Shown here: positions 28,650-41,793 of the stretch, piece by piece
Layout of the letters: each line of letters opens with the position of its first letter
How positions within the stretch are numbered: position 1 is the stretch's first letter
Assembly: GCA_964552285.1 (NCBI GenBank)
Contig: CAZKGT010000001.1
Location: 1 to 43,938 of the forward strand
Origin: an uncultured Pseudobdellovibrionaceae bacterium
GTDB taxonomy: Bacteria; Pseudomonadota; Alphaproteobacteria; Micavibrionales; Micavibrionaceae
Length of the DNA: 43,938 nucleotides
Direction: 5' to 3'
The notes under the pieces: generated by a model
Database searches by the model: none
Seen by the model: only the letters and a program-made list of their open reading frames with translations
What the model was told of the DNA's origin: nothing
Translations under genes and position numbers: made by a program

Positions 28650-29227
28650 GCGCTGCCGGACAGAACGATATTATTCTGGATTTTCCGGAGGAGCGCCTTT
28701 TGCCCTCCCTGATTGAGGCGCTCAGGGAAGGGTTCTTCGAAGTCCCTCCCGGCGCGGTGACGGAAGAGGAAGTCTCCAAAATTGAGGCCGATCCGGAAGC
28801 CTATCTTGCAAGCCTGAATGACAATACACCCGGAGAAATAGAACTCCTCGACGGAACAAAGGTCCCAAAAGTGCCGCAGGAGTGTTTATGGCTCTCGCAA
28901 GGCGACGAGTTCATCGGCACGTTCAATATCCGGACGGAACTCTCCCCCAATCTTTTAGAAAACGGAGGCAATCTGGGCTATACGATCCGCCCGTCTTACC
29001 GGGACCGAGGCATGGCCACGCTGGGCACAAAGCTGAGCAAGGATTACGCCCGGGAAAAACACGGCATGAGCCGCTTGCTGGTGACCTGTCTGGTCGAAAA
29101 TGCTGCTTCGGAGCGCGTCATTATCAAGAATGGCGGCATCTACGAGGACACGGTTGAAAAACCCGTTGGCGGCTTCGGCCCGACAAAACGGTTCTGGATT
29201 GATTTAACCGCAGGCGAGGAAAAATGA
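28646..29227 (+). CDS. GNAT-family N-acetyltransferase (COG3981-like)
   Basis: '[23 protein letters not shown]...[21 protein letters not shown]' resembles the acetyl-CoA-binding core of GNATs. It has ATGA overlaps with both hypC and hypD. Confidence 0.75.
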
Positions 29228-30321
29228 AATACGTAGACGAATTCCGCGATCCCGAAGCTGCCCGCAAATATGCGGAAGAGCTTCGCAAAATCACCACGCA
29301 GCCCTGGACGATCATGGAGGTCTGCGGCGGGCAGACGCATGCGATTGTCCGGTTCGGGATTCAGGATTTGCTGCCGCCGGAAATCAACCTCGTGCACGGG
29401 CCGGGCTGTCCGGTTTGTGTGACGCCGCTGGAACAGATCGACAAGGCGCTTGAGATTGCGGCGCGGCCTGATGTGATCTTTACCTCTTTTGGTGACATGC
29501 TGCGCGTGCCGGGAAGCAACAAGGACCTGCTTTCGGTGAAGGCGGAAGGCGGGGATGTCAGGATCGTCTATTCGCCGCTTGATGCCGTGAAGATTGCGCA
29601 GGACAATCCGGATAAGGAAGTTGTGTTCTTTGCCGTCGGGTTCGAAACCACTGCGCCCGCCAACGGCATGGCTGTGTACAGGGCCGCGCAGATGGGCCTC
29701 ACAAATTTCTCTGTTCTGGTTTCCCATGTGCTGGTACCGCCGGCGATTGAGGCAATCCTTTCCTCACCGGAAAACCGGGTGCAGGGCTTTCTGGCCGCCG
29801 GGCATGTGTGTACCGTGATGGGCTATACCGAATACCCGCCGCTCAGCGAAAAATATAACGTGCCAATTGTCGTCACCGGGTTCGAACCGCTCGATATCCT
29901 GCAAGGCGTTTATATGTGCGTGAAGCAACTTGAGGAAGGCCGCGCCGAAGTGGAAAACCAGTACACCCGCGCCGTGGCCAAGCGCGGCAACACCCCGGCG
30001 CAGGATCTCGTTTCGAAAATCTTCAAAATTTCCCCGCGCAAATGGCGCGGTATCGGGGAAATTCCGCAAAGCGGGCTGGCGCTCGCCGACGAATACGCGG
30101 CCTTTGATGCCGAAACCAAATTCGGCGTTGCGGACAACAGTGTCGAGGAACCGGAGGAATGCATCTCCGGACTCATCCTGCAGGGCCTCAAAAAGCCGCA
30201 CGAATGCCCGGCCTTTGGAACAAAATGCACGCCGGAAAAACCGCTCGGGGCCACGATGGTTTCCGGCGAAGGGGCCTGTTCGGCCTATTATCGCTATCAG
30301 CGTGTGGAAGCGGCGGAATAG
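29224..30321 (+). CDS. hypD: Hydrogenase maturation factor HypD
   Basis: 'MKYVDEFRD', '[11 protein letters not shown]', '[10 protein letters not shown]', 'GFETTAP' and the C-terminal Cys motif '[18 protein letters not shown]'. Confidence 0.92.
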
Positions 30322-30423: not shown

Positions 30424-31422
30424 ATGATACTTCTTACCGGCGCGGCCGGCTTTATTGGATTTCATACGACACAGGCTTTGCTGGCGCGCGGAGAGACCGT
30501 GATCGGCGTCGACAGCCTCAACGATTACTACGACCCGGCACTGAAACAGGCCCGCCTCAAGCAGCTTGAAGGACGCAACGGTTTTACCTTTTACAAGGCC
30601 GATATTGCCGATAAGGAGGCCATTGCCGAGATCATGGAAAAGCATCCGGGGATCGACCGGATCATTCATCTCGCCGCGCAGGCCGGGGTGCGGTACAGCC
30701 TTGAAAACCCGCACGCCTATGCGCAGAGCAATCTCGACGGGCATCTGGTGATGCTGGAGGCCGCGCGGAACAAGGGAAATGACCTGAAGCATTTTGTCTA
30801 TGCATCCTCCTCTTCCGTGTACGGAGCCAACACCAAACAGCCCTTTTCCATTGACGATCCGGTCTGCCAGCCGGTCTCGCTTTACGCTGCGACCAAGCGT
30901 GCGGGCGAGTTGATGGCCCAAAGCTATGCGCATCTCTACCGCTTTCCAGCAACGGGGCTGCGGTTTTTCACCGTTTACGGACCGTGGGGACGCCCGGATA
31001 TGGCATATTTTTCCTTCACCAAGGCGATCAGTGAAGGCAAGCCGATCACCGTTTTCAACAACGGTGACATGAAGCGCGATTTTACCTGGATCGACGATAT
31101 CGTGGCGGGCATTCTCGGCGCGCTCGACACGGTTCCGAAGGCAGACGATCCGTACACGATCGGCGGCGCGCCGCACCGGGTCTTTAACCTCGGCAACCAC
31201 AAATCCGAAGGGCTGCTGGAATTCATCGAAACCATCGAAAAATCGCTTGGCAAGGAAACCAAAAAGGTGATGGCACCGATGCAGCCCGGCGATGTCTACG
31301 AAACCTACGCCGATATCGACGCCACGCGCGAGGTGCTGGGCTTCGAACCTTCCACCCCGATCAGCGAAGGCATTCCGAAGTTTGTCGAATGGTACAAGGA
31401 ATTTTACAAGGACGCGGCATGA
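30424..31422 (+). CDS. NAD-dependent nucleotide-sugar epimerase (UDP-glucuronate 4-epimerase-like SDR)
   Basis: 'ILLTGAAGFIGFH...VIGVDSLNDYYDPALKQARL', the catalytic 'YAATK', and 'RFFTVYGPWGRPDMA'. Confidence 0.82.
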   Translation: MILLTGAAGFIGFHTTQALLARGETVIGVDSLNDYYDPALKQARLKQLEGRNGFTFYKADIADKEAIAEIMEKHPGIDRIIHLAAQAGVRYSLENPHAYAQSNLDGHLVMLEAARNKGNDLKHFVYASSSSVYGANTKQPFSIDDPVCQPVSLYAATKRAGELMAQSYAHLYRFPATGLRFFTVYGPWGRPDMAYFSFTKAISEGKPITVFNNGDMKRDFTWIDDIVAGILGALDTVPKADDPYTIGGAPHRVFNLGNHKSEGLLEFIETIEKSLGKETKKVMAPMQPGDVYETYADIDATREVLGFEPSTPISEGIPKFVEWYKEFYKDAA

Positions 31423-32370: not shown

Positions 32371-32518
32371 AACACAGAGATCACGGAGTAAAATATCCCA
32401 CCGCTGTCATCCCGAGCGAAGCCGAGGGACCTTACCCGCTATCCGCATCTAAGATCCCTCGGCTTCGCCCGGGATGACAGGAATAGGCAATCTCTGTGAA
32501 ACTCTGTGTTCTCTGTGG
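32371..32518. repeat. Composite palindrome: a family B element (32404-32480) nested between the two arms of a family A element
   Basis: The A arms are 'aacacagagatcacggag' at 32371-32388 and 'tctctgtgaaactctgtgttctctgtgg' at 32491-32518. The B arms are 'ctgtcatcccgagcgaagccgagggacctta' and 'taagatccctcggcttcgcccgggatgacag', which are near-perfect complements. Confidence 0.85.
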
Positions 32519-32529
32519 TAAAAGAGCAT

Positions 32530-33648
32530 ATGGCCAAAAAACTTCTCTACATCATCAATCATATGGACTGGTTCTGGTCGCACAGGCTGCCGCTGGCGGC
32601 GGGGGCGCGGAAGGCGGGATGGCAGGTGAGCGTGGCCTGCGAAGGTGCGGGCGGTGATGAGAAATTAGCGGCGCACGGATTTGAAGGGGTGGAGCTTCCT
32701 CCCGCGCAAAATGCACTTTCCTTGCTGAAAGCTATCTTTGCCATTCGTCAAATCCTGCAGGAACACAAGCCCGATCTTGTCCATGCGATTACTCTGAAAT
32801 ACGCCTTCATGCTGGGTCTTGCCGCACGGATGAGCGGGAAGACGCGCCTTGTCTATACGATTGCCGGGCTCGGCTACCTGTTCTCCGGGGAGGGATGGAA
32901 GCCGCGCCTGCTGCGGCTGGCCGTGGGGCCGCTTTTGAAACTTGCCTTGCGCCATAAAAACGCGGTGCTGATCTTCCAGAACCCCGATGACCAGAAGCTG
33001 CTCATTGACCGCGGCTTCGCGCGGGAAGAACAAACGGTCCTGATCCGTGGCTCCGGAGTGGATATGGAAGACTTTCCGTTCGTCCCTGAACCGGAAGATG
33101 AGATGCCGCTTGTTGTCATGCCGACGCGGCTTGTCCATGACAAGGGCGTGGCCGTGTTTGTCGAGGCGGCAAGGCTGCTGAAAGATAAGGGCGTAAAGGC
33201 CCGCTTTGTCGTTGCGGGAGGCCTTAGCGCCCATAACCCACTTGCCATCACCGAGGCTGAGATGAAAACGATGGTGGCAGACGGCGCCGCCGAATGGGCA
33301 GGGAAAGTCGATAATATGCCTGCGCTCTATGCCGCCTCAACCCTCATTGTCTACCCTTCCTACTACAAGGAGGGCGTGCCCAAAGTCCTGCTGGAGGCGG
33401 CCGCCACAGGCCGGGCGATCGTCACAACCGATCATCCGGGCTGCCGCGAGGCCGTGAAAAATGGTGAGAACGGACTGCTGGTGCCGGTTAAGGATGCACA
33501 GGCCACGGCGGAAGCCGTGCGCAAACTGCTTGAAGATAAAACACTTCGGCAGCAAATGGGCAAGGCCAGCCGGACACTGGCGGAAGAAGAGTTTGAGGTA
33601 AAACTGGTGGTGAAAAAGACTCTGAACGTTTACCGGCTTCCGTCCTGA
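32530..33648 (+). CDS. Family 4 (GT-B) glycosyltransferase
   Basis: C-terminal 'PSYYKEGVPKVLLEAAATGRAIVTTDHPGCREAV...GENGLLV' is the E-x7-E type GT4 motif. The start at 32530 avoids the repeat read-through seen in the track start at 32506. Confidence 0.85.
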   Translation: MAKKLLYIINHMDWFWSHRLPLAAGARKAGWQVSVACEGAGGDEKLAAHGFEGVELPPAQNALSLLKAIFAIRQILQEHKPDLVHAITLKYAFMLGLAARMSGKTRLVYTIAGLGYLFSGEGWKPRLLRLAVGPLLKLALRHKNAVLIFQNPDDQKLLIDRGFAREEQTVLIRGSGVDMEDFPFVPEPEDEMPLVVMPTRLVHDKGVAVFVEAARLLKDKGVKARFVVAGGLSAHNPLAITEAEMKTMVADGAAEWAGKVDNMPALYAASTLIVYPSYYKEGVPKVLLEAAATGRAIVTTDHPGCREAVKNGENGLLVPVKDAQATAEAVRKLLEDKTLRQQMGKASRTLAEEEFEVKLVVKKTLNVYRLPS

Positions 33649-33756
33649 TATATTGTCTTCAAGGTATTTTCCCGAGACTTTCCTGTTGCAATGCCCCTAA
33701 TTTTCATGCAGGAATGTACGTCTTAAATAAGAAAACTATTTTAACAGGGAAAAGTT

Positions 33757-35247
33757 ATGCTTGTTGTGGGGGACAAGGCAGAGGATTCCTTTGTGCATGG
33801 CCGCACACAGGGATTTGCCGAAATAAGATCGCTCATCGCGTTCCGTAAAAAGTTTTTTACCGAATATGATCTTTCCGATTATTCGGAGACGTCTATCCAT
33901 CCGGAAATGTTCAACTATTCAGAAGACGCGCACAGGGCGCATTTTCTGGATTCCCTGCCCCACATTCTGGAACAACTGGAACAACTGGAGCGAACAGGCA
34001 AAAAAGACAGCTACAAGGAAGGCCGTCTTTCTGCCCTCCTGGACTTTCAGGCATGTCTTCATCCCGATCATTTCCCTTTGCACTCCTATTTACTGCCCGT
34101 TCCACAATCCATAGCCGAGTCCGGTAAAAAAGACGCCATGACGGACCGGATGAAAGCAATCCTGTTCGAGGTATGGCTGGATGTTTATTTCCGCGTGCGC
34201 GCCATGGCAGAACTGGGGTTCAGTCTACAAGGAGCGCACGATGGAGACTTGCCCGTGTACGTCGTGGGGTTTAGTGACTTGCGCCCTCCGAAGAAACCAA
34301 AATGGCCCAAAGATCATGACGTTGGCGTTCTGCAGCGTATACAGGAAACGCCGCATCCGGCAGACATGCTAAGCGCCATGGGATTAAATTCTGACGCCAT
34401 TACCTCTTACCTGTCAGAAAATGTTGAGGATGCGCATCCCGAATTTGCCGATATGTTCAAAAGCGTACATGAGGATCCCAGGGCCAGAGCCCTGATGGAA
34501 ATTCATACGCTGCTCAGCAATTACAAGGTGATGCTCGCCAAAGATGATTTCAAGGACAGTCTTCCCGTAGATTCAAAAGGCAAGAACGAATACCAACAAT
34601 TTTGCCGGGAAATATCCAAAGAGATAGCGGATATATATAAAGCCATTGCTCTCGCGCTTCTTGACGGAAAAACGCCGGAAGAATTGCTGAGCACTTCTCA
34701 TGGCTGGTTCGATCTCGGCATAAACAGCTTTCGCGGTGCGGAGCCTGACGAGCGCTGGATGAGCGGCTTTAACGACATGAACACCATGGTCATGTCCGTC
34801 GATACGCGCAAACTGTTTGCGCATTCCGCCGAAACGTTCCGGAAACAGTTCGGCAGTGATTTTGCCAGCTACCTGCAGGAGAATATCATTGCAAAAAGGA
34901 TGGCGGTTCATATTAGCAGTCTTATCGCCAGACATGCCGAAACGGCGGCAAGCACCCTGAACGAGTCACCCGTCGTCAGCCGGAATGTCCGTAATACCGC
35001 AGAACATATTCCATCGCTGAAAAATGCCTTTGTTCGCAGCAAAAGCCGCGTCGGCGAGGACGCCTATGCGCAAGCGATGGAAGAGGCCGGAAATGATCGA
35101 AGATCGATATGGGGAGAACCGGTCAGGCTTCTTGCCGCCTATACACGCGCTGTCCTCTGGGGAACAGGACGAAAGGCAGCGTCTCAAAATAACGGCAATC
35201 AGGCAACGGACAAAAAAGAGCCGCCGGGAGATACGCCCCGACCTTAG
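33757..35247 (+). CDS. Hypothetical 496-aa soluble, apparently helical protein with no motif I can recognise
   Basis: A long ORF with an SD-like 'aggga' 7 nt upstream and no competing ORF. Hand counts on three 60-nt lines in or beside this ORF gave 40-45% GC, against 63% on the one ubiU line counted. I found no Walker, HExxH or transmembrane motifs. Confidence 0.7.
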   Translation: MLVVGDKAEDSFVHGRTQGFAEIRSLIAFRKKFFTEYDLSDYSETSIHPEMFNYSEDAHRAHFLDSLPHILEQLEQLERTGKKDSYKEGRLSALLDFQACLHPDHFPLHSYLLPVPQSIAESGKKDAMTDRMKAILFEVWLDVYFRVRAMAELGFSLQGAHDGDLPVYVVGFSDLRPPKKPKWPKDHDVGVLQRIQETPHPADMLSAMGLNSDAITSYLSENVEDAHPEFADMFKSVHEDPRARALMEIHTLLSNYKVMLAKDDFKDSLPVDSKGKNEYQQFCREISKEIADIYKAIALALLDGKTPEELLSTSHGWFDLGINSFRGAEPDERWMSGFNDMNTMVMSVDTRKLFAHSAETFRKQFGSDFASYLQENIIAKRMAVHISSLIARHAETAASTLNESPVVSRNVRNTAEHIPSLKNAFVRSKSRVGEDAYAQAMEEAGNDRRSIWGEPVRLLAAYTRAVLWGTGRKAASQNNGNQATDKKEPPGDTPRP

Positions 35248-35296
35248 CAATCAACACCACATAAAAACAGTCATGGGATAAAGGGAAGACAGCGAC

Positions 35297-37567
35297 ATGG
35301 GTACAAGCCAGGAAAAAACACAAGATTCAGGCGCACCGGAGGACCGGAAGGAGAAATTGAAAAATCACCTCCGTAAACACTGGAGGAAATACGCCATAGG
35401 AACCGCGGCGGCGGCTGGACTTGGCGGCTATATGTGGTGGCAATCGCCTGCTGAGGAGCAGAATAACAGCCCAACGCCGTCCCACGCCGAGTTTAACTGG
35501 GTTGCCATGCAGCATAAATCCGAAAAAGCCTGCCCTTTCCAGATCATAGAAGACCCCCCACCGCAGGAACAAGAAACATATGAAAGTGACGGGCCAGACG
35601 TTGGCTTCGTCGATGCTATGGGTACCGGTGATATCGAAGCAGCGCCAATGGGACCTGAGCAGATTGCCTGCATCGTTGCGACGTCCAAATTCGTTCAGTT
35701 AATGAGAAATGACCGTTTCGATCTGAAGAGCATCATAAAAACCCAGACAGGCGATGATACTTTCCGGGTTTCAGGAAGAACAAACGATGGGGTACGCGTT
35801 ACCACGAATATGGGCGCAAACGATTGGAATACAATGCTGGCTGCACAGGAAGAAAAAATGGAGCCAGTCTGGTACCATCAGACCGATCCTCAAATTCCCG
35901 GCGGTTCCGGTGGTGGTAACACTGGTGGTGGCGGATCAACCTTAATGATGTTACTCGTCGGCATTATTGGTGCATCGGTCATTTTCCAAATCTGGAACTC
36001 AATCAAACAACGACGCATGATGCAGAACGGTGATGCCAATCCGTTTGGAAAGATGGGCAAGTCGCCGCTGAAGCTTGAAAAACAATCCCCTGTAAGGTTT
36101 TCGGACATTGCCGGTGCCCACGAAGCAAAAGATAAGGCAAGGCGCATTGTCGAATACATTAAAAACCCCGAGAAGTACCAACGTCTGGGATCTGAAATCT
36201 CGCGCGGTACGTTGCTGGTTGGTGCGCCCGGCAACGGTAAAACTCTCCTGGCAAAAGCCATCGCCGGGGAATCAGGTGTCAATTTCTTCTATACGTCCGG
36301 GGCAGAGTTCACGGAAATGCTGAAGGGGGTGGGCGCCAGCCGGGTTCGCAATATGTTCGAAGAAGCCCGTAAGAATGCTCCCTGTATCGTCTTTATCGAT
36401 GAGATTGATGCGCTTGTGAAAAGCCGCGGCAACCCCATGGGAGATGGCGATGACCAGACCCTGACCCAACTTCTGGCGGAAATGGACGGCATTGCCGATA
36501 ATGAGGGTGTTTATTTCATCGCAGCAACCAACAGGCCGGATATCATGGATGAGGCGGCCAAACGTTCAGGGCGTTTTGGCCATCAGATTGAAGTGCCTTC
36601 ACCTAACCTGCTGGAACGTGAAGAAGTTATTCGGCTCTACATGAAAAAACACCCGCTGGCCCCCGGCATCGATCCCAGGGCGATTGCAAAAGGGACTCCC
36701 GGATTTTCGTGCTCTGATCTCCGGCAACTGATGAACGATGCCGGCCTTATTGCCGCCGACAAGGATCATAATGTCATTACCAAGGAAGATATTTATGAGG
36801 CCAAATATCAGGTCATGATCGGCGAGCGGCGCCAGTCGATGGTCGTTACCGAAGATGAAAGACGGAACACCGCTTATCATGAAGCCGGGCACGCCCTGAT
36901 CGGAATTTTTCATGATCCGCCGTATTACGACCTTCACGGAGTTACGATTTTACCGCGCGGTCGGGCCATGGGCGTGACAATCAACCATCCGGACACCGAC
37001 AGGCCGATGAGGGACTTTGGCAAAATGGAAGCCTATCTCGCCATGCTGACGGGCGGGCGGATTGCAGAGGAAATGATTTTTGACCGAAAGGAAGTCACTT
37101 TCGGCGCCTACGGCGATATTCAGATGGCCACCGACCAGATCCGGAAAATGGTTATGACGATGGGGTACGATGAGGATCTTGGTTTTATGAGCTACAACGA
37201 ACAGCCGCAAACGATCATAGGACATAAGTCCGGCGGAGCAACCCTCTCCGATGAAACAAGAAGGGAGATAGAGGCCGCGTGCCGAAAACACCTGAAAGCA
37301 GCCAAGGAGCGAGGGGAGAAAATACTCCATGAGCATAGGGGCAAACTGGAGTTGCTGGCTAAAGCCCTGTTGAAATTTGAGGAGCTTAACGGCGAAGAAG
37401 TGATGCAGGTGATAAACGGTGAGGAAATATCCCGGCCCGGGTTTGACGACGTTTCCGATGAGTTTACCGGTGATCCGGAACCACCGCCAAAACGAGGCTC
37501 AGTTCCCAGTGCAGGAAATATAAACCCTGCTGGTCTTTCTGGACCATCCGCATCTTTGAGCATGTAG
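35297..37567 (+). CDS. Divergent FtsH-family AAA+ zinc metalloprotease paralog
   Basis: Two TM segments ('YAIGTAAAAGLGGYMWW' and 'LMMLLVGIIGASVIFQIW'). Walker A 'GAPGNGKT', Walker B 'IVFIDEIDA', 'ATNRPD', 'HEAGHAL' and 'GGRIAEE'. The pore-loop position reads 'EMLKG' instead of the canonical 'EMFVG'. Confidence 0.9.
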   Translation: MGTSQEKTQDSGAPEDRKEKLKNHLRKHWRKYAIGTAAAAGLGGYMWWQSPAEEQNNSPTPSHAEFNWVAMQHKSEKACPFQIIEDPPPQEQETYESDGPDVGFVDAMGTGDIEAAPMGPEQIACIVATSKFVQLMRNDRFDLKSIIKTQTGDDTFRVSGRTNDGVRVTTNMGANDWNTMLAAQEEKMEPVWYHQTDPQIPGGSGGGNTGGGGSTLMMLLVGIIGASVIFQIWNSIKQRRMMQNGDANPFGKMGKSPLKLEKQSPVRFSDIAGAHEAKDKARRIVEYIKNPEKYQRLGSEISRGTLLVGAPGNGKTLLAKAIAGESGVNFFYTSGAEFTEMLKGVGASRVRNMFEEARKNAPCIVFIDEIDALVKSRGNPMGDGDDQTLTQLLAEMDGIADNEGVYFIAATNRPDIMDEAAKRSGRFGHQIEVPSPNLLEREEVIRLYMKKHPLAPGIDPRAIAKGTPGFSCSDLRQLMNDAGLIAADKDHNVITKEDIYEAKYQVMIGERRQSMVVTEDERRNTAYHEAGHALIGIFHDPPYYDLHGVTILPRGRAMGVTINHPDTDRPMRDFGKMEAYLAMLTGGRIAEEMIFDRKEVTFGAYGDIQMATDQIRKMVMTMGYDEDLGFMSYNEQPQTIIGHKSGGATLSDETRREIEAACRKHLKAAKERGEKILHEHRGKLELLAKALLKFEELNGEEVMQVINGEEISRPGFDDVSDEFTGDPEPPPKRGSVPSAGNINPAGLSGPSASLSM

Positions 37568-37640: not shown

Positions 37641-37715
37641 TGGAGCGGGTGAAGGGATTCGAACCCTCGACTTCAACCTTGGCAAGGTTGCGCTCTACCC
37701 CTGAGCTACACCCGC
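37641..37715 (-). tRNA. tRNA-Gly (anticodon GCC), CCA encoded
   Basis: The reverse complement 'GCGGGTGTAGCTCAGGGGTAGAGCGCAACCTTGCCAAGGTTGAAGTCGAGGGTTCGAATCCCTTCACCCGCTCCA' folds into a 75-nt cloverleaf. The acceptor stem pairs 7/7, the anticodon loop is CTTGCCAA-type and the T-loop is TTCGAAT. Confidence 0.95.
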
Positions 37716-37782: not shown

Positions 37783-38058
37783 TTAGTGGACGGTGACAAG
37801 CGGGACATCATATCCGCGCAGTTCTTCGCCGGGAACAGCCGTCAGAATATGCATGCTGGGGCTGCCGGATATGCATTCGGAGGCCTGATCGGTTAGCTCA
37901 TAATCCATGAGATCGCCCTCATGCTCCGGGTCGTCATAAACCAGCATTACAAGTTTTTGATCCTTGTAAAATTCTATTCTTTTCACCATATGGGGGAACG
38001 GCGTGTCCGTTACCACGACCATCGTGCCATTGGGAAGCTTTCCAAGCTCAACATTCAT
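37783..38058 (-). CDS. Hypothetical small acidic protein (91 aa)
   Basis: An ORF in the track with no recognisable motif. It starts 14 nt downstream of the stop of the 57-aa ORF on the same strand. Confidence 0.5.
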   Translation of the reverse strand: MNVELGKLPNGTMVVVTDTPFPHMVKRIEFYKDQKLVMLVYDDPEHEGDLMDYELTDQASECISGSPSMHILTAVPGEELRGYDVPLVTVH

Positions 38059-41061: not shown

Positions 41062-41793
41062 ATGCGTAATAAACTACTTCTTACGGGGGCCGTGGTTGCC
41101 TCTCTCGGGGCGGCAGCCCCGGCAATGGCTGCCGAGCCGTTCGGTGAAGGATTCGGAGAACTTTCCGCCAATGTCGCCTTTACCAATAACTATGTCTTCC
41201 GGGGGATAACCCAGTCCGATGAGCAGTTTGCACTGCAGGGCGGCTTTGATTACAGCCATGATCTGGGCATCTATCTTGGTATCTGGGGCTCATCCATCGA
41301 CTTTAATGACGGTGATGAAGGCGAACTGGAAGTCGATTTTTACGGCGGATGGGCCGGTTCCTACAACGATATCGGCATCGATCTCGGTGTGATCTATTAC
41401 TGGTACCCGGGTGCAGACGATGCGCTTGACTATGACTATGTCGAACTGGCCGGTAGCCTGAGCTATGATTTCGACATGTTCAGCGTCGCAGCAGGTCTGA
41501 ACTACTCGCCGAACTATTTTGCGAACTCCGATACCTTCTGGTATCCGCATGCCAGCATCGAATTCGGCCTGCCTTACGAGTTCACGCTGGGCGCCTCTAT
41601 CGGTCATAACGACATTGATGACGAAGCGTCCTTCGGTGTCGAGGACTACACCGACTACAGCATCAGCCTCGGCTACGAGTTCTACGGCTTTGACCTGTCA
41701 CTGGCCTGGATCGACACCGATCTGGACGAGCCGACGGAATGCGCCGACGGCTGCGAAGATCATATCGTCTTCACGGTTGCCCGGAGCTTCTAA
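41062..41793 (+). CDS. TorF-family (TIGR02001-like) outer-membrane beta-barrel protein
   Basis: Signal peptide 'MRNKLLLTGAVVASLGAAAPAMA', then 'NVAFTNNYVFRGITQSDEQFALQGGFDY', alternating aromatic beta-strand patterns and a C-terminal Phe. Confidence 0.8.
   Translation: MRNKLLLTGAVVASLGAAAPAMAAEPFGEGFGELSANVAFTNNYVFRGITQSDEQFALQGGFDYSHDLGIYLGIWGSSIDFNDGDEGELEVDFYGGWAGSYNDIGIDLGVIYYWYPGADDALDYDYVELAGSLSYDFDMFSVAAGLNYSPNYFANSDTFWYPHASIEFGLPYEFTLGASIGHNDIDDEASFGVEDYTDYSISLGYEFYGFDLSLAWIDTDLDEPTECADGCEDHIVFTVARSF

Follow-up and report, generated by a model that had tools for sequence, protein, structure and literature searches.

A divergent second FtsH gene and an adjoining orphan gene beside tRNA-Gly(GCC) in an uncultured Micavibrionaceae bacterium

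The window analysed here is a stretch of 43,938 nucleotides that makes up the whole of contig C1 (CAZKGT010000001.1) of a metagenome-assembled genome (MAG; GCA_964552285.1, G000 in the following) from an uncultured bacterium of the Micavibrionaceae. The assembly amounts to 2.44 Mb in 298 contigs and is 97% complete, with an estimated contamination of 4.6%. Two of its genes, which we refer to as the module, are the subject of this work: orf496, which encodes a protein of 496 residues without recognisable relatives, and ftsH2, which encodes a divergent member of the FtsH family of AAA+/M41 zinc metalloproteases (Table 1). The 3' end of a tRNA-Gly(GCC) gene points at the module and lies 73 bp from the end of ftsH2. 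An earlier note, made from the sequence of the window, had described these genes as a horizontally acquired module of lower GC content. Its coordinates, the lengths and strand of both open reading frames (ORFs), the 49 bp gap between them and the distance to the tRNA gene were all confirmed, as was a Shine–Dalgarno (SD)-like sequence for each gene (of the AGGGAA type upstream of both ATG codons); the compositional part of the description did not hold, and the horizontal part was not supported.

Retained chemistry and altered parts of FtsH2

The FtsH-like character that the earlier note assigned to the second product is well founded. In Pfam, FtsH2 matches Peptidase_M41 (2.8e-46, over the full profile), AAA (1.2e-39) and AAA_lid_3 (5.5e-09), and it aligns to E. 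coli FtsH (7vhp) with an E of 2.9e-125. Its TIGR01241 score is 550.3 bits, which is under the 600-bit equivalog cut-off. The check for a canonical ftsH elsewhere, which the earlier note had proposed, turned up one on contig C7 with a score of 883.5 bits; the genome has two FtsH genes, and the copy in the window is therefore accessory. The AAA+ motifs are kept in FtsH2, with Walker A as GAPGNGKT (including the lysine), Walker B as IVFIDEID and sensor-1 as ATNRPD, and both arginines of the second region of homology (SRH) are present (R423 and R426, in KRSGRF). The zinc site consists of HEAGH at residues 528–532 and of GGRIAEE at residues 586–592, which holds the third ligand; it is invariant with the 29 canonical alphaproteobacterial FtsH sequences that served as the comparison set. 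Alphaproteobacterial FtsH proteins typically have an ‘SVPS’ motif in the C-terminal tail, and FtsH2 has it too. Judged from these residues, FtsH2 is predicted to retain ATP-driven zinc protease chemistry. An AlphaFold2 model based on a 30-sequence alignment, with a mean predicted local distance difference test (pLDDT) score of 66.5, recovers the overall FtsH architecture with well modelled AAA+ and M41 domains, and Foldseek ranks 9a2p, a model of full-length E. coli FtsH, first among its matches (E of 3.6e-48 over 657 columns).

FtsH2 departs from the comparison set at 83 of the 252 columns that are invariant in it. The pore-1 loop reads LKG instead of FVG (F342L and V343K, both at invariant positions), the pore-2 loop is three residues shorter (GDGDD-QT compared with GNDEREQT), the DR that follows the arginine fingers is replaced by GH and the sensor-2 region is altered. 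In the alignment, the linker between the second transmembrane helix (TM2) and the ATPase domain has about three glycines in 32 residues, compared with eight in 29 in the canonical FtsH of the same genome. In mutagenesis of the E. coli enzyme, replacing the pore phenylalanine by other hydrophobic residues can leave the protease active, and for this reason we read the LKG loop as an altered grip and not as a dead pore.

The N-terminal part finds no relatives: residues 1–215 have no homologue at E ≤ 10, and residues 65–240 give no match to FtsH_ext (PF06480) at E ≤ 10, whereas the canonical FtsH of G000 matches this family at 4e-12. The only strongly hydrophobic segment of the protein is TM2, with Kyte–Doolittle values of 1.7–2.1 in 19-residue windows and a helix at residues 215–243 in the model. 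The region presumed to be extracytoplasmic comprises about 165 residues. In the model, the N-terminal part is made up of a cytoplasmic tail, a helix (15–48), a disordered acidic and proline-rich segment of about 75 residues (47–122), a small α+β domain (123–187) and a glycine-rich linker (186–214). The parts that would select and pull substrates (the pore-1 and pore-2 loops, the linker, the extracytoplasmic region and a weak first membrane helix) thus appear to have been rebuilt around what looks like an intact catalytic apparatus.

The core domains of FtsH2 are 50–52% identical to diverse alphaproteobacterial FtsH proteins, 48% identical to the canonical copy of its own genome and 42% identical to FtsH of the Babeliales. 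A tree of the core domains places FtsH2 inside the alphaproteobacterial FtsH radiation, with 100/100 support against the Babeliales, although its exact position is unsupported. Its terminal branch is 2.85 substitutions per site, about 36 times the median of 0.078. Placing FtsH2 with the canonical clade of its own family is not rejected by the approximately unbiased (AU) test (p = 0.095). No orthologue was found in the protein collections and family genomes that we searched, and a search for further contigs encoding FtsH2 returned none. On these sequences, an old horizontal acquisition from another alphaproteobacterium cannot be separated from an in-lineage duplication with extreme acceleration.

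Two groups of other FtsH proteins were considered as relatives and set aside. Proteins of about 880 residues from the Babeliales (Dependentiae) score high because they have two AAA modules each, but with a core identity of 42% they were rejected as orthologues. These proteins (P0005, P0006, P0008, P0009, P0012 and P0013) carry two tandem AAA+ modules before M41, and their Walker A motif is GxPGNGKT, with an unusual asparagine that FtsH2 also has. Extra FtsH copies of 690–745 residues occur sporadically in other genera of the family (L018, 2661–4898; L048; L055/L071, 7188–9290; L019, 7318–9390) and represent at least two further independent origins, one being a clade from G013, G062 and G247 with a long N-terminal region and the other a copy in G019 that groups with Rhodobacterales-type FtsH. 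A tie between FtsH2 and these copies was rejected, as they fall in clades of their own and their neighbours are unrelated. An epimerase gene does lie near the extra copy of G013, as it does near the module, but we judged this to be coincidental because the orientation and the gene order differ.

The orf496 product and the gene pair

The earlier note could place no motif in the product of orf496, and our searches agree. The protein is acidic and predicted to be soluble; its highest Kyte–Doolittle mean over 19 residues is 0.94 and it has no transmembrane segment. It has a disorder-prone C-terminal tail of about 30 residues (466–496). A single-sequence AlphaFold2 prediction reached a pLDDT of only 35 and suggests nothing beyond helical structure, so that the protein is probably all-helical. 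No family was found for it in Pfam, NCBIfam, PADLOC or PHROGs, the only Pfam/NCBIfam match at E ≤ 1 being an insignificant one to DUF6604 (E of 0.074), and there was no significant match among the PDB sequences (E ≥ 0.12). In a word-indexed search of 5.8 billion clusters the protein found itself only, and exhaustive phmmer against 1.84 billion representatives gave no homologue; two giant repetitive proteins that came up in the phmmer search were rejected, as their repeat-inflated matches were to one 40-residue stretch. When 40 relatives and 237 genomes of the family were searched in six frames, chance matches alone came up, those that were examined being the coiled coil of an SMC/RecN-type ATPase and another unrelated protein, and no homologue was found in G000 itself. 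A large protein without recognisable relatives thus does adjoin an FtsH copy, as had been claimed.

The word ‘orphan’ is weaker here than it seems. HypD (29224–30321), an epimerase (30424–31422) and a Gcw_chp protein (41062–41793) from the same window are also the sole members of their 90%-identity clusters among about 15 billion proteins, and a second genome of the same genus was not found among the 40 relatives and 237 family genomes. The species thus appears to have been sequenced a single time, and a protein that evolves fast and is confined to the genus would give just the picture seen for the product of orf496. The practical lesson is that orphan status is inflated where a genus has been sampled once.

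The features of the locus are collected in Table 1. AGGGAA precedes the ATG of orf496 at 8–13 nt. The spacer upstream of orf496 is taken to hold its promoter by inference, since a scan with the sigma-70 consensus gave no match on the + strand there. The terminator scan showed no terminator-like hairpin on the + strand between orf496 and ftsH2, which is consistent with co-transcription. The near neighbours of the module encode epimerases, a GT4 glycosyltransferase, tRNA-Gly, a YbaK-like deacylase and a Trx-TPR protein; the tRNA gene was the only match in a scan with Rfam.

Table 1. Features of the module and its surroundings (positions in the window)
Feature	Position	Strand	Description
AT-rich spacer	33649..33756	+	34% GC; between GT4 glycosyltransferase gene and orf496; presumed promoter and ribosome-binding-site region
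orf496	33757..35247	+	496-residue ORF; orphan; acidic (pI 5.8), soluble
Intergenic spacer	35248..35296	+	49 bp; SD-like AAGGGAAG
ftsH2	35297..37567	+	756 residues; divergent FtsH-family AAA+/M41 zinc metalloprotease
N-terminal 215 residues of FtsH2	35297..35941	+	From hydropathy and AlphaFold2 model segments
TM2 of FtsH2 (residues ~211–236)	35927..36004	+	From Kyte–Doolittle and model helix
Pore-1 loop codons of FtsH2 (L342-K343-G344)	36320..36328	+	From alignments
tRNA-Gly(GCC)	37641..37715	-	ARAGORN; Rfam 71.6 bits

Base composition and the tRNA-Gly(GCC) slot

Hand counts in the earlier note had put the GC content of the module at 40–48%, with 43% in the upstream spacer and 63% on one line of ubiU taken as the level of the flanks. 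The measured values are different: orf496 has 51.2%, ftsH2 52.1% and the whole module 51.6%, the upstream spacer is lower than was counted (34%) and the flanking genes have 56–58%, with 54.6% for the genome. Among all 3.8 kb windows of the genome (mean 54.4%, standard deviation 2.2) the module has a z of -1.29 and lies at the 10.5th percentile. The GC content at third codon positions (GC3) is 55.2% in orf496 and 55.8% in ftsH2, at the 10th–12th percentile of 1473 long ORFs (genome mean 63.9%, standard deviation 7.4), and the synonymous-codon likelihood scores of the two genes have z values of -0.83 and -0.73; in both measures the genes are nearly identical to each other. In tetranucleotide distance from the genome, 35% of genome windows exceed the module. 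Scored with an in-frame dicodon model, for which 1145 other long ORFs served as the training set, orf496 reached +0.77 per codon (20th percentile of native genes) and ftsH2 +0.82 (24th percentile). The GC content of the module is a mild dip inside the normal range of the genome and carries no island signature; both genes are real, coding-like and compositionally indistinguishable from native DNA. Proper window statistics therefore show no significant deviation, which the earlier note had itself named as grounds for dropping the lower-GC module, and the lesson for practice is that GC counted by hand overstated an ‘island’. Native codon, dicodon and oligonucleotide usage argues for an old, fully ameliorated acquisition or a fast-diverged duplicate from within the lineage, and not for a recent import.

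The proposal that the tRNA-Gly gene is an integration target fared better, in part. The block to its right (tRNA-Gly, orf91, the ybaK-like gene, the Trx-TPR gene and orf356) is syntenic in five of the six relatives examined, and the tRNA gene is its left edge. What lies on the other side of the tRNA gene varies: PBP1a follows directly in G002 and after four extra genes in G011, while the slot is occupied in G007 by a P4-type tyrosine integrase island, in G009 by an RTX protein and small ORFs, and in G015 by orphan genes, one of them of 1173 residues. The G007 integrase (contig C26, L032, 3904–5382; Arm-DNA-bind_3, Phage_int_M and Phage_integrase) is from a related genus and begins 170 bp past the 3' end of the orthologous tRNA-Gly(GCC), with a second integrase-family gene 2 kb further on; integration at this tRNA gene therefore does occur in the family. 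In G000 itself no integrase domain was found in the ORFs from 28.6 to 41.8 kb, the homologue of the G007 integrase being at tRNA-Met on contig C10, and a search of the window for an attachment (att) repeat, allowing three mismatches, found the 24 nt tRNA 3' end only once. A repeat scan of the window showed nothing relevant. The slot is thus variable in relatives, as an integration target would be, but with native-like composition, no integrase and no att repeat the claim of a horizontally acquired low-GC module is not supported for G000.

On the left side of the module the pair of epimerase and GT4 genes is conserved, and three relatives have next to it a block whose counterparts in G000 sit on C53. 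The G000 counterparts of the ancestral neighbours are dispersed: the GT4 block is on C53 (6752–12406), and of the neighbours of tRNA-Gly, PBP1a is on the 3 kb contig C218 and two genes are on C286. This points either to a rearrangement of G000 or to breaks in the assembly at joints that vary between strains. Given the variable side of the tRNA gene and the displaced ancestral neighbours, the module sits at an exact synteny breakpoint, in a slot where the family places accessory DNA. The genes on either flank have orthologues in the family (57–70% identity) and share synteny with them in small blocks, and no overlap of the module junctions with other contig ends was found.

Two neighbouring genes deserve a remark of their own. 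The 91-residue ORF between tRNA-Gly and the YbaK-like gene (37783–38058, - strand) has no Pfam or PHROGs match but is found at the same position in five relatives with 40–44% identity, and is therefore a real gene of the family and not an orphan. Orthologues of the GT4 gene (32506–33648 in the window) have a single in-frame stop in five related genomes, G239 (C101), G163 (C22), G105 (C39), G205 (C5) and G096 (C12), which may reflect recurrent inactivation or sequencing errors.

Readings of the gene pair and comparison with known FtsH systems

Accessory FtsH paralogues are a known kind of protein, and FtsH2 is a variant of them with an unexplained gene, orf496, beside it. With housekeeping FtsH (MEROPS M41; TIGR01241; E. 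coli 7vhp/7wi4, Thermotoga 2ce7/3kds) it has in common the domain order of N-terminal membrane part, AAA+, AAA lid and M41, and also the Walker A and B motifs, sensor-1, both SRH arginines, HEXXH and the third zinc ligand; it differs in the LKG loop, the pore-2 deletion, GH for DR, the glycine-poor linker, the unrecognised outer region, the weak first transmembrane helix (TM1) and the long branch. The earlier note had pointed to accessory FtsH on a protein-quality-control island of Pseudomonas aeruginosa clone C; this is PaFtsH2, a xenologous FtsH carried by the PACGI-1/TLPQC-1 island (PMC6629908, PMC10850787). The likeness is that of a second FtsH beside a core copy, with about 45% identity to the housekeeping enzyme, an N-terminal region that diverges and a glycine-poor linker between membrane and cytoplasm, which in P. 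aeruginosa restricts FtsH2 to fewer substrates (PMC10850787). Xenologues of the PaFtsH2 type are more than 61% identical to one another (PMC10850787). In a tblastn search of 72,556 plasmids, many from Klebsiella, Pseudomonas and Enterobacter, all 2064 matches to our FtsH2 were below 60%, the best at about 46%; membership was judged through these plasmid-borne FtsH, which should include the TLPQC type, and no PaFtsH2 sequence was compared directly. FtsH2 therefore falls outside the clade of Pseudomonas FtsH2 xenologues, and kinship with the clone C island protein was not upheld. PaFtsH2 also keeps the FVG pore motif where FtsH2 has LKG, and while the TLPQC-1/PACGI-1 island has heat-shock and disaggregase genes (sHsp20, ClpG), the neighbours of FtsH2 are a glycosyltransferase gene, an orphan gene and a tRNA, with no compositional island signal around them.

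FtsH paralogues whose functional loops have changed can become specialised or assemble into hetero-oligomers (PMC6629908). Among the multi-copy systems (cyanobacterial FtsH1–4; plastid FtsHi and Ycf2–FtsHi, 8xku/8xqw), Foldseek matches FtsH2 to FtsHi chains; the zinc site is lost in FtsHi, however, whereas FtsH2 keeps HEAGH. The known FtsH partners (the HflK/HflC SPFH cage, the TPR adaptor LapB/YciM, and YccA) embody the same idea as the one considered here for orf496, that of a dedicated modulator or feeder encoded nearby. The orf496 product has no SPFH, TPR-plus-rubredoxin or Bax-inhibitor domain according to Pfam and NCBIfam. HflK/HflC, LapB/YciM and YccA are membrane-anchored, unlike the orf496 product, which is without a membrane segment.

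The reading that we favour, and to which we give an even chance, is that FtsH2 is an accessory, lineage-restricted FtsH that is catalytically equipped yet re-specialised and has been in the lineage for a long time, with the upstream orphan orf496 probably co-transcribed. FtsH2 would supplement the housekeeping FtsH encoded on C7 and not replace it, and would most likely be a specialised protease with a narrow range of substrates or one that is active conditionally. On this reading orf496 is a genuine gene with native features that encodes a protein of the cytoplasm. Its product may be a dedicated partner of FtsH2, as a substrate, an adaptor or a modulator, and a C-terminal tail prone to disorder is the kind of segment that could enter an FtsH pore; such a functional link is suggested by the adjacency, the shared strand, the lack of a terminator between the genes and their near-identical codon statistics, but we hold it tentatively and as less likely than not. 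Several observations weigh against the favoured reading. As neither gene has an orthologue, no conserved linkage supports a functional pair, and the extra FtsH copies of other genera have different neighbours, none of which resembles orf496. The long branch of FtsH2 and its loss of one third of the invariant positions could also mean relaxed selection toward decay. The presumed TM1, an alanine- and glycine-rich helix at about residues 32–48, is weakly hydrophobic (17-residue mean ≤ 0.74), which makes the topology of FtsH2 uncertain.

The alternative that we take most seriously, although we think it rather unlikely, is a duplication of the housekeeping ftsH within the lineage followed by extreme acceleration, through neofunctionalization or relaxed selection, with orf496 as an unrelated neighbour that evolves fast or arose newly. 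The AU test leaves a place for FtsH2 in the canonical clade of its own family, the ‘SVPS’ tail is kept and the composition is native; and since housekeeping proteins of the window are also 90%-identity singletons, lineage-specific genes would look orphan in any case. But the core identity of FtsH2 to the FtsH of its own genome (48%) does not exceed that to FtsH proteins of distant Alphaproteobacteria (50–52%), the free tree places it elsewhere, though weakly, and the tight spacing and matching codon statistics favour one unit over a chance pairing. In a further reading, that of decay, FtsH2 would be a remnant under relaxed constraint and orf496 would not code for a functional protein. One third of the invariant FtsH positions have changed, including the pore loops and residues adjacent to the SRH, the branch is very long and the orf496 product could not be folded with any confidence; nevertheless the frames are intact over 1.5 and 2.3 kb, all of the catalytic residues are kept, the in-frame dicodon signal is strong in both genes and a chance ORF of 496 codons has a probability of about 4e-11 per start at this GC content (calculated from 61/64 sense codons), all of which makes decay very improbable.

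A recent genomic islet at tRNA-Gly(GCC), in which foreign DNA brought in an FtsH xenologue with a cargo protein, is distinctly unlikely in our estimate. The module abuts the 3' end of the tRNA gene, at the site where G007 has its integrase island and G009 and G015 have genome-specific genes while G002 has PBP1a directly at the tRNA, its GC content is three points under that of the genome, and the AU test neither supports nor rejects a tie to the canonical clade of the family. Against these points, the integrase and the tRNA 3' end repeat are missing from the stretches searched, the GC, GC3, codon, dicodon and tetranucleotide statistics are all at the 10th–35th percentile of native sequence, and no donor-like relative was found in plasmids, phage families or 15 billion proteins. 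A chimeric join or a contaminating contig is barely credible: the MAG is fragmented, with some contamination estimated, and the ancestral neighbours of both flanks are on other, short contigs, but both flanks belong to the family by orthology and small-block synteny, the composition of the module matches the genome and no other contig end overlaps the junctions.

Beyond the favoured reading of a re-specialised accessory FtsH, the two genes could be imagined as a two-component proteolytic device that has not been described, in which a rebuilt membrane FtsH acts on or through one private cytoplasmic partner. The partner could be an adaptor that brings in one target, or a substrate under regulation, with its breakdown acting as the switch for a response, and both parts would co-evolve too fast for relatives to stay detectable. 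We regard this as unlikely.

In this bacterial family the flank of tRNA-Gly(GCC) does act as a variable slot. Accessory copies of FtsH have been described before, but how their choice of substrates differs is little understood. A protein that keeps the catalytic sites and changes almost every presumed element of substrate entry would be a natural experiment on the specificity of FtsH, and if orf496 does encode its private partner, the pair would offer a compact model of a dedicated membrane protease and its client.

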